DNA of 64,000 nucleotides from an uncultured delta proteobacterium (GCA_963776345.1 CAVZMH010000020.1:1-64000), one strand, 5' to 3'; positions 30,109-51,800 are shown, numbered from the stretch's first letter. The notes: a model not told the origin generated them from the letters alone. Numbers and translations are program-made.

Positions 30109-30207
30109 GCACCGAGCGCGCGGGGGATGCTTCCCCCGCCTGCCGCGCTCGGGCAATGTGCTCGGCGCACGCCCGCCTGGGATGGCGGACGTCCTGGGAG
30201 ATCGGCC

Positions 30208-30771
30208 ATGCGATCAGTTCTGGCAGGGATGCTCGTGGCGATCGGCTGCGCGCATGCGCCGGTCGAGTCCGCCGCGCCGGGATGGACGCTGCTCAACGCG
30301 ACGCCGGGAAGCGAGGAGCTCCAGGTCCGGAGCGACGTTCACATGCGGCGGGCGACGGTGACCGGCGCGGCGGTGCGCGGGCCTGACCTGGATCTGCAGC
30401 GCGCCGACGGGAAGCTGCAGGGGACGACGTACATCCGGCGTCCGGTGGAGCTGCAGCAGCGGGGGAACGAGATCATCGGCCAGGTGGGGTCGGACGACTG
30501 GGACCTGAGGCTCTCCCAGGACGGGGCCGAGATGCGGGTCACGGGACTCATCGGCGGAAGGCCCTCGACCTTCTGGATGAGCCCGAAGCGGATCCGCGGG
30601 GCGGTCGGCATGTGCCTCTTCGATCTCGTCTGGTCGACCGGCCTGTACGCGGGCGCCCGGACCTGCGGCGTGGCGAGCGACAACATCGCGCTGCAGTTTC
30701 CGGCGGCGCTCGCGGCCTGGAGCGATCCTCAGGTCGCGGCGCTGTTCGGGATCCTGGTGCAGCGCGAGTAG
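30208..30771 (+). CDS. Hypothetical beta-rich lipoprotein, tandem copy 1
   Basis: Lipobox AIGC, and co-linear similarity to the next gene. Confidence 0.75.
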   Translation: MRSVLAGMLVAIGCAHAPVESAAPGWTLLNATPGSEELQVRSDVHMRRATVTGAAVRGPDLDLQRADGKLQGTTYIRRPVELQQRGNEIIGQVGSDDWDLRLSQDGAEMRVTGLIGGRPSTFWMSPKRIRGAVGMCLFDLVWSTGLYAGARTCGVASDNIALQFPAALAAWSDPQVAALFGILVQRE

Positions 30772-30802
30772 GCCGCGCACCCCGGGGCAGGAGCTGGGCC
30801 CG

Positions 30803-31363
30803 ATGCGTCGAGGCGCGTTCACCCTGCTGGTCCTCTCGGCCTGTGCGCACGTGCCGGCCGAGTCCGCCGTGCCCGGCTGGACGCTGCTCAGCGCCAGCCC
30901 GGGCACGGAGGAGCTCCAGGTCCGGACGGACGATCACCTCCGCCGGGCGACGGTGACCGAGGCGGGAGCGCGCGGGCCCTTCCTGGACCTGCGCCGCGTG
31001 CCCGGCAAGCTCCAGGGGACGAGCCACGTGGACTGGCCGATCGCGCTCCAGCAGAAGGGAAACGAGATGCTGGGCAGGGTGGCGGGGGACAGCTTCGACC
31101 TGACGCTCCAGCTGGACGGGGACGAGATGCGCGCCACCGGCGTGGTCGCGGGAGCGGCGTCGACCTTCTGGATGAGCCCGGGCCGGATCCGCGGGTCGGT
31201 CGGGCCGTGCCGGTTCGATCTCGTCTGGGGCGAGGGGATGTACACCGGGGGCCGGACCTGCGGTCCCCACAGCGAGACGGTGAGCGTGCTGTTCCCGCCG
31301 GCGCTCGCCGGGTGGAGCGATCCCGAGGCCGCGGCCCTGCTGGCAATCATGGTGCAGCGCTAG
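30803..31363 (+). CDS. Hypothetical beta-rich lipoprotein, tandem copy 2
   Basis: Lipobox LSAC. Shares PGWTLL, EELQVR, STFWMSP, C-x-FDLVW, RTCG and WSDP with copy 1. Confidence 0.75.
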   Translation: MRRGAFTLLVLSACAHVPAESAVPGWTLLSASPGTEELQVRTDDHLRRATVTEAGARGPFLDLRRVPGKLQGTSHVDWPIALQQKGNEMLGRVAGDSFDLTLQLDGDEMRATGVVAGAASTFWMSPGRIRGSVGPCRFDLVWGEGMYTGGRTCGPHSETVSVLFPPALAGWSDPEAAALLAIMVQR

Positions 31364-31866: not shown

Positions 31867-32460
31867 CTACAGCTCCCGCCGGCCGGACAGCGCGCGGGCG
31901 AGCGTGGCCTGGTCGGCGAACTCGAGGTCTCCGCCCATCGGGAGGCCCTGGGCCAGCCGGGTGACGCGGATTCCCATCGGCTTGAGGAGCCGCATCAAGT
32001 ACAGCGCCGTCGCCTCGCCCTCGACGTCCGGGTTGGTGGCGACGATGACCTCCTCCGCCTTGCCGTCCTCCAGCCGGACGAGGAGCTCCTGGATGCGCAG
32101 CTGCTCCGGGCCGATGCCCTCCAGCGGGGAGAGCACGCCGTGCAGCACGTGGTAGCGGCCCTTGAACTCGCGGGTCTTCTCCAGGGCCATGAGGTCGGCG
32201 ATGCCCTCGACGACGCAGAGCAGGCGGTCGTCGCGCCGCGGGTCGGTGCAGAAGCCGCAGAGCTGCCCCTCGGTCAGCGCGAAGCAGCGGCTGCAGAGCC
32301 GGACCTTGCTCTTCACCTCCTGGAGCGCGTTGACCAGCTCGGCGGCGTACTCGGGTGGCGCGCGGAGGATGTGGAAGGCGAGCCGCTGGGCGGTCTTCTC
32401 CCCGATGCCGGGGAGCTTCGAGAGCTGGGCGACGAGGCGGTTGAGGGGGTCCGGCGTCAT
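31867..32460 (-). CDS. recR: Recombination mediator RecR
   Basis: LPGIGEKTAQRLAF, C4 zinc finger, YHVLHGVLSP, EGEATALY and GGDLEFAD. Confidence 0.97.
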   Translation of the reverse strand: MTPDPLNRLVAQLSKLPGIGEKTAQRLAFHILRAPPEYAAELVNALQEVKSKVRLCSRCFALTEGQLCGFCTDPRRDDRLLCVVEGIADLMALEKTREFKGRYHVLHGVLSPLEGIGPEQLRIQELLVRLEDGKAEEVIVATNPDVEGEATALYLMRLLKPMGIRVTRLAQGLPMGGDLEFADQATLARALSGRREL

Positions 32461-32777
32461 CCGGTGATTCCGGGGATCTTCAGGCCGCCGGAGACCTTCC
32501 CCAGCTCACGCTCGGCGAGCTCGCGGGCCTGGGTGAGGGCGGCGTTGACCGCGGCGGCGATGAGGTCCTCCATCATCGCCACGTCGCCAGCGGCGAGGAC
32601 CTCCGGGGAGATCTTGATCGAGCGGACGTCACCCCCGCCGGTGGCGACGACCTTGACCCGGCCGTCGCCGGCCTGGCCCTCGACGGTCTCCTCGGCCAGC
32701 TCCTTCTTCCGCTGCTCGAGCTTCTCGGTCAGCTTGCTGGCCTGGCGCATGAAGTAGTTGAGGTCGACTCCGGGCAT
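32457..32777 (-). CDS. ybaB: YbaB/EbfC nucleoid-associated protein
   Basis: VEGQAGDGRVKV...MEDLIAAAVNAAL, located between dnaX and recR. Confidence 0.93.
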   Translation of the reverse strand: MPGVDLNYFMRQASKLTEKLEQRKKELAEETVEGQAGDGRVKVVATGGGDVRSIKISPEVLAAGDVAMMEDLIAAAVNAALTQARELAERELGKVSGGLKIPGITG

Positions 32778-32797: not shown

Positions 32798-33749
32798 TCA
32801 GGGCTGCTCGTCGATGACGTCGCTGCCGGGGGCTCCGGTGCGCTCGTGCTCCAGGACCTGGATGTGCTCCAGCTCGCCCCCGAGGATGCGCAGGGTGGCG
32901 AGGATGGCCGGGTGGTTGCGGACCGACTGCCCGGTGGCGCGCTCGTGCTCGGCGCGGGCCTCGGCGTCCAGCTCGGCGATGGTCTTGCCGCCGGCGGCCG
33001 CGCCCGGGCTCTCGTCGACCAGGAGGCGGGTGGGTCGGCCGAAGTGAAGCGAGAGGAGGCGCTCGACCACGGGACGTCCGCTCTGCCCGCTGACGGTGGT
33101 GCGGTGGAAGCTGGCGTCGCCGCGGAAGGCGATGCCCACCTCGCCCTCGCGGAGGTGGAGGAGCCGGGCCTGCTTCAGGCTGGCCGAGTGCCGGGGCGAC
33201 TCGGTGGCAACGGTGTCCAGCGCCGCACGCCAGCGTTCGAGGAGCGGACGCGACGGGTCGTCACGTCCGCGCGCCGGGGTGGCGGCCCCGGGCAGGCACT
33301 CGCCGGTGGCGCATCCACCGGGGCTGGTGTCGACCACCAGCGGGGCATCCGACCCCTTCCGGCTCGGTGCGTCCGGGGCGGCCGCCGACGCCGTCGACGG
33401 GCCGCGAGCTCGAGCTGGCTCGTCGTTCGACCCGTTCGCCGGAGCCGCACGGGAGGGCGTTGCGCTCACGCTGGCCTGGACCTGGGCCGGTGCGCTTGCC
33501 GCCGCGGCGGGAGTGAGCGGTCGCGACGATGCGCCCGCTGCGGGCGTGGGTGGTAGCTCGGAGGCGCGCCGGGGCGCGGCGGGCGTCTCGGCACGGGCAG
33601 CGGCGGGAGCACGTGCCGGCGGGGGCTCGGCGGCCTCGGCGCGCCGGGACGGAGTGGTGCCCTCGACGCTGCGGGCGGACGGAGCTCCGGTGGCGCGCAC
33701 CGCGCCGGCGGCGACGGGACCCGGGCGGGCTGGCGGCGGCTCAGCCGCG
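32798..33749 (-). CDS. dnaX: DnaX tau C-terminal portion, in the +1 frame relative to the dnaX 5' ORF
   Basis: Pro/Ala linker, then W...L...SLKQARL...FHR...HPAILATLRILGGEL, a tau-like C-terminal domain. No clear RBS of its own; the frame is open back through the 5' ORF stop. Confidence 0.7.
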
Positions 33750-34958
33750 AAAGGGCTGGGGAGCGGGACGACCTCCGGGCGTCCCGCCGGGCCGGGCGGC
33801 CGCGCGTGTCTCGGGCGCGGCGCCGGGGCCGAGGAGCTTCTCCACCCGGTTGAGCAGCTCGGGGATGGAGGCGGTGGGGGCGAGCTGGACGGCCTTGAGG
33901 AGGGCCATCTCCAGCGCGAGCCGGGGCTGGGCGGCGCGGCCCACGTCCCAGACCGAGCCGTGGACCACGTCGAAGAGGCGCGCGAGCTGGGCCGGGTCGG
34001 CCTCGCGGGCGAGCTCGACGACCATCTTCTGCTCCACCTCGGCCAGCTCGGCGGGCGGCTTGCCGGTGGCGCGGGTGACGAGCACGTGACGGAGCTCGAG
34101 GGCCAGCTCCTCGGCGAGGCGGCGCAGGTCGGCGCCGCGCATGAAGACGTCCTCGACGGACTCGAGGAGCGACCTGGCGTCGCGGCGGACGAGCGCGGCG
34201 GCCATCTGCTGCACGATGGTGCGGTCGATGGCCCCCAGTGCCTCGGCCACCGCGGCGTCGCTGGCGCCCGGGCCGCAGGCGGACATCACCTGATCGAGGA
34301 GGGAGAGGGCGTCGCGCATCCCGCCCTCGGCCTGGCGGACGATGAGGGCCAGCGAGGCGTCGGACAGGCCGGCCTTCTCCTCGGAGGCGATCTGCTTCAG
34401 GCGGGCGAGCATCAGCTCGGCCGGGATGCGCCGGAAGTCGTGGCGCTGGCAGCGGGAGAGGATGGTGTCCGGGAGCTTGTGGGGCTCGGTGGTGGCGAAG
34501 ATGAACTTCACATGCCCCGGCGGCTCCTCGAGCGTCTTGAGCAGCGCGTTGAACGCCGCCCCGGAGAGCATGTGCACCTCGTCGATGATGTAGATCTTGT
34601 GCCGGTCGCGCTGGGGCAGGTACTTGGCGTTCTCGCGAATCTCCCGGACGTTCTCCACGCCGTTGTTGGAGGCGCCGTCGATCTCCGCGACGTCGACCGA
34701 GGTGCCGGCGGCGATCTCCATGCAGGGCTGGCACACCCCGCAGGGGGTCGGGGTGGGGCCGTGGACGCAGTTGAGGGCCTTGGCGAGGAGGCGAGCGGCG
34801 GTGGTCTTGCCGACGCCGCGCGGGCCGCAGAAGAGGTAGGCGTGGGCGACCCGGTCCAGCTTGATGGCGTTGGCCACCGTCCGGACCACGTGCTCCTGGC
34901 CGGTCATGTCGTCGAACGTCTGGGGGCGCCACTTCCGCGCCAGCACGAGGTAGCCCAT
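33741..34958 (-). CDS. dnaX: DNA polymerase III gamma/tau clamp-loader part (405 aa to first stop)
   Basis: MGYLVLARKWRPQ, GPRGVGKTT, EIDGASNNGV, IIDEVHML, SRC and GGMRDALSLLDQ. Ends ...PQPFRG*. Confidence 0.95.
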   Translation of the reverse strand: MGYLVLARKWRPQTFDDMTGQEHVVRTVANAIKLDRVAHAYLFCGPRGVGKTTAARLLAKALNCVHGPTPTPCGVCQPCMEIAAGTSVDVAEIDGASNNGVENVREIRENAKYLPQRDRHKIYIIDEVHMLSGAAFNALLKTLEEPPGHVKFIFATTEPHKLPDTILSRCQRHDFRRIPAELMLARLKQIASEEKAGLSDASLALIVRQAEGGMRDALSLLDQVMSACGPGASDAAVAEALGAIDRTIVQQMAAALVRRDARSLLESVEDVFMRGADLRRLAEELALELRHVLVTRATGKPPAELAEVEQKMVVELAREADPAQLARLFDVVHGSVWDVGRAAQPRLALEMALLKAVQLAPTASIPELLNRVEKLLGPGAAPETRAAARPGGTPGGRPAPQPFRG

Positions 34959-48878: not shown

Positions 48879-51800
48879 ATGCCCGAATCCCTGGTGGAGC
48901 GGTACGAGCAGCTCCTCGCCACCAATCCCACCTCCACCCTCTTCGTGGAGCTGGCTCGGGTGCTCGTCGAGCAGGGTGAGAACGCCCGCGCGGCCGAGGT
49001 GTGCCAGCAGGGGCTCGTTCACCATCCGGACAGCATCCACGGGTACGTGCTCTGGGGGAAGGCCCTCATCAGCCTGGGCCGCCCCGCCGAGGCGATGGAG
49101 CAGTTCGACCGGGCGGTGGCGGTCGACCGGTCCGACCCGCTCGCATACCACCTCATCTCGGAAGTCCTGGTGAGCAAGGGGCTGTACCGCTCGGCGCTGC
49201 CGCTGCTCCGCAAGGCGGTGGCCCTCTCGCCCGGGGACGACGAGGTGAAGACCTGGCTCGAGCAGACCCAAGGGGCGCTCGCCGGCGGCCCGGTCCCCAC
49301 CGTCCGGCCGGCGGTGCTGGACAACCCGCCCGAGCGGCCCCTTCGTCCGCGGGCCAACGGCAGCCCCACCGGGCGCAACGCCGCCGTCCGGTCCACCCGG
49401 ACCGGGAGCCTGCCGCCGCCGCCCCCGCCCGAGGCGCTGAGCGAGGCGGCAGGGGAAGACGCCGCTGCCCGAGCGAACGGGGTCGGGTTCCATCCCCGCG
49501 GCGGGCGACGGTCCGACGACGCCCGGTCCGAGCGATTACCCGGCGAGCGCCGTCGCCGCGAGCGAGGCCGGGCCGACCGGGGTGGAGACCGGGCCGCTCG
49601 CCGAGCCGAGCCTCCTGGCCGACGTGCCCGATGCCCCCGCGCCGACGGGCGCCATCCCCGCGGTGAAGCGGCCGCTCGCCACCGGCACCACCGAGGCCAT
49701 CGCCAAGGAGTACGAGAAGGCGCTCCGGGCCAAGGTGGCCGAGAAGGCACGAGACAGGAGCTGGATCCAGGTCCACGCCCTCAAGCTCGCCATCGCCACC
49801 GTGACGCTGGTGGCCCTGGTCGCGGGCGGGCTCGTGTACCGGCACACCCGGGCGGTCAACCAGGGCCGGAACCTGGCCGACGCGCTCGCCAGCGCGCGCA
49901 AGGCGCTGGCGCTGGACACGGCGGCGGGCGACCGGGCGGCGCTCGAGTCGCTGGCCCAGGCGCTCCGGATGGAGGAGGACAGCCCCGCGGCCTGGGACCT
50001 GACCGCCTACGCCCGCGCGGCGCTGGCGGACGAGCACGGCGGCACCGCGCAGGACCGCGCCCAGGCCGTGACCGCGCTCGGGCGCCCGAAGGCGGGCTCG
50101 AGCCACCCGGGCCTGGTCCTGGTGGCCCGGGCGATGGCCACGGAGGGCGCCGAGCGGGACGCCGCACGGAAGGCCATCCTCGAGTCGCCGCTGGACCTCT
50201 CCGAGGTGCACGACGCGGCGGGCCGGCTGCTCCTGGCCAAGGGCGACCCCAAGGCCGCGGTGCTCCACTTCAAGCGCGCGCTGGAGCTGAACGCGGGGAA
50301 CGTCCGGGCCCTGGTGGCGCTCGGCGACTACTACCGCGAGGCGGGCGACGACGCCGCCGCGCTCACCGTCTACTCCAGCGCCGAGCAGCTCTCGCCGGAC
50401 CACCCGGGCCGGGCGCTGGGCGAGGCCGAGAGCCGGCTCGCGCTGGAGCAGGACGTCACCCAGGCCCTGGCCGAGGTGGACAAGCTGGTGCCCGAGTCGC
50501 TCACCCCGGAGATGGCCGCCCGGCGCGCGCTGGACCGCGGGCGGCTGCTCTCGGCCAACGGGGCGCACGAGCAGGCGGTGAAGGTGCTCACCGAGGGCGC
50601 CTCCGGCGGGAAGCGGGCCTTCGACTTCCAGGTGGCGCTCGGCGACGCGCTCCGGGCGAGCGGTGACCTCACCGCGGCGCAGAAGGCGCTCGAGGCGGCG
50701 GTGAAGCAGAGGCCGAAGAGCGAGGAGGCGAAGGAGGCCCTGGGCCGGGTGCTGCTCGGGCGCGACCGCGAGCGCGAGCTCCTGCAGCGCTTCGCCGACG
50801 ACGCCGGTCGGCGGATGGCCCTCCTCCGGGGCGTCGCCTGGGGCCGGCTCCGAGATTGGAAGCGGGCGCGGGCCGAGCTGGCGAGGACCTCGGTCTCGGG
50901 GAAGTACCCCATCGAGGCGGTGGCCTGGCTCGCGCTGGCCGATGCGGCCGAGGGCGAGCCGGACAAGGCGCAGACGGTGCTCGAGCGCACCCTGGGGGCG
51001 GCGAAGCGGCCGAGGGCGGACGTGGCGGTGGCGCTGGGGAAGGTCTACTGGCAGCGCGGCATCCTGGACCGGGCCAAGGCCCAGTTCGAGGGCGCGAGCC
51101 GCGACCCGCGCGACTACGAGGGCGCGTGCGCCCTGGGCCGGCTGCTCTGGGTGTCGGGCTCCCCCGAGCGGGCGGTGGAGCCGCTCCAGCTCTCCATCCA
51201 GCGGAACCGGAGCCACGGCGAGAGCCGGCACGCGCTCGCCCGGGTGTACCTGGCGCTGGCCAAGCCGGCCGAGTCGCTGGCCCAGGCCGAGGCGTGGGCG
51301 GCGGAGAACCCCTCCAGCGCCGCCGCGCACAAGGACGTGGCGCTGGCCCTGGCGCAGGAGGGCAAGTGGAAGGAGTCCGAGACGGCGCTGAACCGCGCGC
51401 TGAAGCTCGACCCGCAGGACGCCGAGTCCCACCGGCTCCGGGCGAGCGTCCTCTTCGCCCGGGGCGACGGGCGCGGCGGCTTCGCGGCGCTGCAGAAGGC
51501 GAACACCCTCGCCCCGAAGGACAGCGAGGTGTTCTGCGCCATCGCACGGGCGTTCGTCCGGCAGGGCAATCTCCAGCAGGCGCAGAAGGCCTACCAGGCG
51601 GCGGTGCGCGAGGAGCCGGCCAGCGTGTGCGGCTTCGCGGGCGACGTGCTGCTCAAGCCGGCCGCGGGCAAGCCGCAGCTCTCGAAGCTCCAGGGCCTGT
51701 CGTCGGCGGCGCCGCGGGCGACGGATCGCGCCTGGGCAGCGGTCGCCGCGTCGCGGGTGGCGCTGGCGGCGGGCCGGGTGCAGGACGCCAAGCACAGCGC

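Follow-up and report, generated by a model that had tools for sequence, protein, structure and literature searches.

Introduction

Natural cellular +1 frameshifts in bacteria are, to our knowledge, few. The closest described counterparts of the gene reported here are the two-ORF (reversed) dnaX genes, of which the available text of Antonov et al. (2013, PMC3711429) records 17 from 12 genera, called as -1 and carrying runs of A7-A10 in 12 of the 17; such genes are also covered in the accessible part of a later survey (Atkins et al. 2016, PMC5009743). The slip codon has precedents as well, again as given in the parts of the sources at hand: the msi172-msi171 pair (FseA) of a Mesorhizobium ICE shifts by +1 at UUUC with an efficiency of 4-13% (PMC4755241), influenza PA-X shifts by +1 at UCC_UUU_CGU with about 1.3%, and amalgaviruses use UUU_CGN (PMC3498833). 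Engineered upstream hairpins that adjoin the E site stimulate +1 shifting on 70S ribosomes, according to the available text only when RF2 is absent (PMC6321510).

The literature searched, to which subscription papers largely did not belong, held no report of a myxobacterial dnaX frameshift; the myxobacterial names searched for occur neither in the main text of PMC3711429 nor in the one supplement covered, and the accessible text of a bioRxiv screen (10.1101/2025.10.02.679949) has no mention of Myxococc-. Here we report a two-frame dnaX gene in a window of 64,000 nt (the whole stretch of DNA that was analysed) from an uncultured delta proteobacterium (GCA_963776345.1, CAVZMH010000020.1:1-64000), together with its conservation in the family Myxococcaceae and the limits of its distribution.

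Locus structure

The dnaX gene is coded by the minus strand, to which all dnaX coordinates below refer. Its frame-0 ORF (33741..34958) encodes a gamma-like protein with C-terminal PQPFRG before the stop; matches to PF13177, PF00004, PF22608 and PF12169 place the AAA+ clamp-loader domains I-III in this part, the N-terminus of which is single-copy genome-wide, aside from a distant paralog of 344 aa. A second ORF in the +1 frame (32798..33751), uninterrupted between the TTC at 33751 and its stop at 32798, encodes a Pro/Ala-rich linker and a tau C-terminal domain. At the junction (33755-33741) the sequence reads CCC TTT CGC GGC TGA. Translation reproduced both product lengths given in the preliminary description, 405 aa for frame 0 up to PQPFRG and about 719 aa for the +1 continuation, with the +1 frame open from TTC; the two frames joined at Phe give a product of 719 aa (~75.6 kDa), and frame 0 alone one of 43.7 kDa. 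Along the gene, the high GC3 passes from frame 0 (0.93-1.0) to frame +1 (0.90-1.0 in the last 450 nt).

The site is spanned without a gap by a Logan contig in three of four DNA runs, namely X6 (33672-34215; 2 substitutions), X1 (33717-34546; 7 substitutions) and X3 (33657-33965; 17 substitutions), and is uncovered in run X5; these contigs represent relatives or possibly the source sample and are not raw reads. RNA contigs of runs X15, X16, X17 and X20 were also inspected, and none bridges the shift site. Since the split is, moreover, common to 81 of 82 loci of the family (see below), the earlier worry about an assembly error at dnaX is settled: the split is real. That worry had arisen from four error-like insertions reported elsewhere in the window. 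Two genes are indeed split there, and no such indel is present at the dnaX site. The two genes, of 1174 aa (49445-49458) and 502 aa (~7138) in the relative G007, are each interrupted in the window by a one-base insertion, the former as seen against both relatives compared and the latter against G007 only; the splits near 49450 and 7140 are probably assembly errors, judging from these alignments.

Downstream of dnaX lie ybaB/ebfC and recR (31867..32777, minus strand), the customary genes of the dnaX operon, followed by two tandem, similar small proteins of 214 and 186 aa with lipoprotein-like N-termini (30127-31363). On the other side, an Alg9-like glycosyltransferase (PF03901; 35015-37700, opposite strand) separates dnaX from a cluster of SRP RNA, four tRNA-Ser, tRNA-Arg(ACG), tadA and serS, an arrangement repeated in the three family genomes checked. 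The tRNA-Arg and tadA genes had been linked to the shift in the preliminary description, a connection that did not survive comparison: these neighbours also precede an unsplit dnaX at four loci (L235, L236, L238, L240), and neither was found within ~6 kb upstream of the split dnaX at two others (L242, L243). As a part of the mechanism the pair was discarded as old synteny and general neighbourhood.

Conservation in the Myxococcaceae

The family of the window genome (f1) was placed as Myxococcaceae by its named members and was sampled with 82 dnaX loci from 48 genera, at least one per genus, as part of 126 genomes matched. Frame 0 stops at ~400 aa behind the conserved cassette described below in 81 loci (~391-406 aa; two outliers are alignment offsets), and the tail follows in the +1 frame, open from TTC, at all 74 informative loci (73 by script, L170 by eye), the other seven ending too early. 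At the 82nd locus (L023) the cassette has one extra spacer base; this genome is 66% complete and has a further break in dnaX.

The cassette begins with an mRNA hairpin (33764..33786) that comprises 9 bp, a bulged U and an NGGA loop of 4 nt and is extendable to 11 bp in the window genome. Its stem reads GGAGCG...CGCTCC, with variants; the loop and the inner part of the stem accommodate a Shine-Dalgarno-like GGAGGT (33771..33776), 18 nt 5' of UUU. The preliminary description had noted the GGAGGT correctly at this distance (33776-33771), but had missed the hairpin that holds it, which is the main conserved element. With one locus per genus (48 genera), 97.5% of the alignment cells were paired and 15 double-change cells fell at four pairs, a pattern matched by 0 of 500 shuffles, with slid control structures pairing at 33-58%, where three of the nine pairs are invariant and kin are not independent. 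The window genome's own hairpin carries two compensatory changes; as a single sequence its fold is not unusual (z -1.36; 18 of 200 shuffles equally stable). Within GGAGGT, five of the six bases are invariant at 81 of 81 loci and the A is present at 75; GGA and GGT account for 8.9% and 5.8% of the Gly codons in the window genome.

Between hairpin and slip codon lies a spacer (33753..33763) of fixed length and variable sequence that always terminates in C, so that the distance from hairpin end to UUU is 12 nt without exception. The codon that would occupy the E site is CCC at 34 of the 81 loci, AAC at 29, ACC at 6, AGC and GGC at 5 each and TCC at 2. The predicted shift site itself is UUU_CGC (33747..33752), with tRNA-Phe in the P site. 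TTT-C stands in frame 0 at all 81 loci and the next codon is CGN at 80 (CTG at L150), although TTT is uncommon, as had been observed earlier: in 1,417 long ORFs of the genome selected by a crude filter it makes up 2.3% of the Phe codons (419 of 18,035), and away from the site these dnaX genes use it for 60 of their 791 Phe codons. The frame-0 stop is TGA at the third codon past UUU (33741..33743); over the family it follows after three codons at 69 loci and after four to eight at the other 12 (TGA 68, TAG 10, TAA 3). The expectation that TTT_CGN with a nearby stop would be conserved in relatives is thus borne out. Invariant at all 81 loci are the C before TTT, TTT itself, the C after it, the five GGAGGT bases and six stem bases. 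On the 3' side, base conservation falls past the stop and the folds of three loci differ. A heptamer of the E. coli type (X_XXY_YYZ) is absent in this family and present in the -1 variants of the sister family (see below). The only tRNA-Phe anticodon in the genome is GAA.

An RNA model of the cassette (50 nt, built from 48 loci of the family) gave one match of 44-72 bits in each of 37 family genomes, including the window genome; strong matches adjoin dnaX wherever both positions were compared, and all remaining matches are below 28 bits. No strong match away from dnaX was found in the window genome and, under strict filters, none in 104 genomes outside the family, which is no proof of absence since the model is tuned to the family and missed, or scored weakly, the variants of the sister family and of G265 described below. 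Viral contigs contained no exact match. A looser pattern recovered at least 120 loci in metagenomes; two are dnaX, each of which has the complete stem, the stop and an open +1 frame; there was no two-ORF look-alike among the other metagenome matches listed. The cassette was found in 0 of 79 outgroup dnaX loci from other phyla or classes.

Among DnaX protein clusters (search span 222-709 aa), 111 of 120 inspected are short, with GG-R/H-x5-F and no more than nine further residues at the C-terminus, and entries of 402-408 aa come from species of Myxococcus, Pyxidicoccus, Corallococcus, Stigmatella, Cystobacter and Archangium; M. xanthus was not among the named entries of the clusters inspected in this span. 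With a DnaX of about 400 aa listed for Myxococcus, Corallococcus, Stigmatella, Cystobacter and Archangium, the true tau appears to be missing from these entries. One genome of the sample (G307, listed at 6% contamination) has two dnaX copies (L290, L303), each with a +1 cassette.

The tau tail

In E. coli, domain V of tau binds Pol III alpha. A domain V-like domain (32801..33220) was assigned to the +1 tail from its predicted fold, a match to PF20964 below the family cut-off (E 2e-4) and dN/dS. The structure model of the last 140 residues (input of 96 aligned tails) had a pLDDT of 92; the first three Foldseek rows were all E. coli tau (2AYA, 5FKU_E, 5FKV_E; E 0.004-0.008, best prob 1.00), and the best row of a VIA fold search was 5fku_E (Z 7.8, rmsd 2.1, 97 aligned), with moderate scores. 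A PDB sequence search with a tail profile gave weak rows only (Thermus tau, E 0.43), and a profile from 33 continuous relatives matches the tail at >100 bits and found no second tau tail elsewhere in the genome. In six same-genus pairs, dN/dS of the tail was ~0.14-0.21 (dN 0.045-0.089; dS 0.31-0.47); one distant pair, aligned over 65 codons only, was uninformative. The +1 tail is under purifying selection, and modelling gives it a tau domain V-like fold.

The 48 genera share no conserved +1-frame start codon, so that an own start for the downstream ORF, which the preliminary description had named as contrary evidence, did not emerge: the first ATG, GTG or TTG is spread from -38 to +292 nt, and 2 of the 48 genera have none within 300 nt. 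Full-length tau is described as essential in the accessible text of 10.1101/2022.11.10.516041. Since no other tau is encoded in the genome, we infer that the cell must make tau from these two frames.

The otherwise variable linker contains a two-cysteine motif, G-C-A-T-G-E-C (33296..33316), which is found in the +1 product only. In the form G-C-[AS]-x-G-x-C it occurs in 62 of 71 tails of the family, in 1 of 1 in f2, 2 of 5 in f3, 0 of 13 in f4 and 0 of 16 in f7. A tau-specific redox or metal-binding role would be a guess from the motif.

Distribution beyond the family

The sister family f4 (13 genomes, 14 loci) has the +1 arrangement with a remodelled hairpin at eight loci in seven genomes and a -1 arrangement in five genomes, and one locus is cut off. 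The codon phase follows the direction: UUU_C stands in frame 0 when the tail is in +1, and C_CCU_UUY when it is in -1. Genus g27 (L019, L172; two genomes) is -1 at C_CCU_UUC; its hairpin, GGGGGT and 12-nt spacing are all kept but lie in a different reading frame, which indicates that the element acts as RNA and not as peptide; genus g72 (L178, L301, L302; three genomes) is -1 at C_CCU_UUU with a stem downstream. At f4 locus L022 the A-site codon is CCC. The shift direction has flipped at one core within f4, perhaps twice.

Of 40 loci from other families of the order, 34 are continuous, five are cut off and one is split without the motif. The rest of the phylum (39 loci) comprises 33 continuous genes, three cut off, one motif-less split, one with an A9 -1 site and one with a full +1 cassette. 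This last case (G265; L213 / L246, family f13, 49% GC) is a single genome and combines hairpin, GGAGGT, 18 nt, TTT CGA and a tail in +1. Two loci with a frame change in the linker and no motif (L187, L312) were set aside as probable assembly errors. L214 (G227) and two Opitutaceae loci (L070, L095) are reversed dnaX genes that belong to the known type with an A-run and a -1 shift.

In a quick tree of 85 chosen rows, assessed by SH-aLRT only, f1 and f4 are grouped together with the continuous G025 (98), and G265 nests among continuous f13 genes. The simple reading would be one origin near the base of f1 and f4 and a second origin or a transfer in G265. A close lineage, 86-90% identical to the window gene, has a continuous tau of 647-695 aa (P0014, P0035, P0036; related P0034, P0037), and its proteins are without the cassette peptide; P0178 was placed there by length only. 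The junction of this fused tau appears to pass from frame-0 residues into +1-frame residues, hard-wired, and the lineage shows, as far as its predicted proteins go, that the cassette can be lost. Two continuous tau genes (L018 in G025, codon 393; L308 in G253, codon 414) have an in-frame TTT-C at the same place with a possible upstream hairpin, and reach a stop in the +1 frame after 2 or 4 codons, a proximity that arises by chance at 6.7% of linker codons; possibly these would make gamma by a +1 shift, following the E. coli logic.

Mechanism and alternatives

The preliminary reading, in which frame 0 gives gamma and a predicted +1 shift at UUU_C gives tau, agrees with the outcome of each comparative test, and we consider it very probable that tau is made by a programmed +1 ribosomal frameshift at this site of the two-frame dnaX. 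Peptidyl-tRNA-Phe(GAA) would shift from UUU to the overlapping UUC, so that a G:C pair replaces a G:U wobble; ribosomes that do not shift would meet the stop after a few more codons, yielding gamma, and the gamma:tau ratio would be a function of the slip rate. When the P site holds UUU, the base of the hairpin would be located at the mRNA exit of the 30S subunit; GGAGGT may first pair with the 16S rRNA tail, slowing the ribosome, and the hairpin may then refold behind the ribosome, pull the mRNA out and favour the forward slip. Because the stop lies outside the A site, competition with a release factor should not be the trigger, and since CGC is common (40% of Arg codons) a hungry A site is not evident. 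UUU_C sites that lack a strong stimulator shift at 1.3% (PMC3498833) or 4-13% (PMC4755241), which may explain why an extra element is kept in this family. Role reversal by one base is possible where efficiency is near 50%, according to the available part of PMC5009743, and the direction flips in f4 hint at a high slip rate, as far as alignments can indicate.

The strongest competing explanation, which we regard as improbable, is that RNA polymerase slips at C-TTT-C with the aid of the nascent hairpin and loses one base, so that part of the mRNAs encode tau in frame. Polymerase slippage is used by Thermus dnaX (PMC3711429), stem-loop-driven realignment on T5C5 is known (PMC5009743), and f4 has both directions at one core, which PMC3711429 regards as suggestive of slippage; these statements are from the accessible parts of both papers. 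The run here is T3 only, however, and with six different codons 5' of it re-pairing would be impossible for a shifted hybrid; the hairpin stops 12 nt short of the T run, and the codon phase obeys ribosomal rules in every +1 and -1 case. The free variation of the bases 5' of the invariant C suits one-tRNA slippage in the P site and not the realignment of a 9-bp RNA:DNA hybrid.

Alternatively, the tail could be a separate protein whose translation begins at a start codon of its own or at a coupled one, GGAGGT serving as the ribosome-binding site. This is highly improbable: a perfect Shine-Dalgarno sequence does lie close upstream, and stand-alone database calls of the tail exist (P0015), but the +1-frame start codon is unconserved, the invariant rare UUU would be left unexplained, and the protein is one continuous chain at 34 of the 35 informative loci of the order's other families and in the close sister lineage. 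We give equally little credence to the same frame being reached by another route, that is, by a -2 slip, by a slip at the preceding codon or through a stall on a nascent GGR-x5-F peptide. The GG-R-S/P peptide is well conserved in the family and CCC_U precedes the site at 34 of the 81 loci, yet CCC is missing at the other 47, a -2 move leaves tRNA-Phe without a cognate codon, synonymous positions covary as base pairs, and g27 has the RNA element in another frame. An assembly error as the source of the split, or a tail that is a decaying remnant, has a negligible probability, probable indel errors in two other window genes notwithstanding, given ungapped contigs in three runs, a split common to 81 of 82 loci, a within-genus dN/dS of ~0.14-0.21 and no other tau tail in the genome.

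If the +1 ribosomal frameshift is true, it adds a further route to the gamma/tau pair, with a +1 ribosomal shift at a non-A-run site and tau as the shifted product. It is conceivable, and we put it forward as a tentative proposal, that the Shine-Dalgarno-loaded hairpin 12 nt 5' of C_UUU_C represents a natural bacterial +1 stimulator of a new class, with enough strength to supply an essential replisome subunit. It might act as a portable dial, at which one-base changes yield +1 tau, -1 tau, fused tau or possibly +1 gamma, might have arisen or spread at least twice in the Myxococcota (G265), and may tune gamma:tau with growth or development. Compensatory changes found in nature, variants with a flipped frame and a fused relative are all available for this 50-nt cassette, so that both the mechanism and the old question why bacteria keep gamma become directly testable in a genetically tractable group.

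Comparison with known systems

Precedents exist for the reversed logic and for the slip codon; for their union in an essential gene, throughout a family and with a natural 5' hairpin and Shine-Dalgarno sequence, none was found in the literature searched. The preliminary description had recognised an inverse of the E. coli logic, which fits the data but is not new, two-ORF dnaX having been described in 2013 (PMC3711429, available text). The dnaX genes of E. coli (-1 at A_AAA_AAG) and Thermus (transcriptional slippage at A9) likewise each yield gamma and tau; in both, tau is the unshifted product, and site and mechanism differ from those of the Myxococcaceae. Slippage sites such as the Thermus A9 and T5C5 need a long homopolymer or paired runs, whereas the myxobacterial site has T3 and variable 5' bases. 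The reversed genes, as the accessible text of PMC3711429 presents them, share with the window gene a frame 0 that encodes gamma, recoding for tau and a stop just past the site; they are called as -1 shifts, whereas the window dnaX is predicted to shift by +1 at C_UUU_CG, with a 5' hairpin and no A-run.

The Mesorhizobium msi172 case resembles the present one in a bacterial tRNA-Phe that slips by +1, from UUU onto UUC, close to where ORF1 ends, and in a G-rich sequence upstream, but its product is a regulator of a mobile element and no hairpin is described in the part of PMC4755241 available, whereas the myxobacterial product is a core replisome subunit, family-wide. PA-X and the amalgaviruses share the NNC_UUU_CGN context, on the eukaryotic ribosome and, in the available text, with no evident stimulator. 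The prfB gene (RF2) shares the +1 direction, an internal Shine-Dalgarno sequence and an essential product; its shift takes place at CUU_UGA, where the A site holds the stop and the Shine-Dalgarno sequence adjoins the E site, whereas in myxobacterial dnaX the stop follows 3-8 codons on and the Shine-Dalgarno sequence lies 18 nt away in a hairpin. In the literature searched, a 5' hairpin as a +1 stimulator was found in engineered constructs only. As in the engineered refolding hairpins (PMC6321510, PMC3639245; parts available), the hairpin lies 5' of the shift site, where it would favour +1; those constructs are synthetic or viral-derived, whereas the hairpin of the Myxococcaceae is natural, covarying, placed 9 nt further 5' and carries the Shine-Dalgarno sequence.
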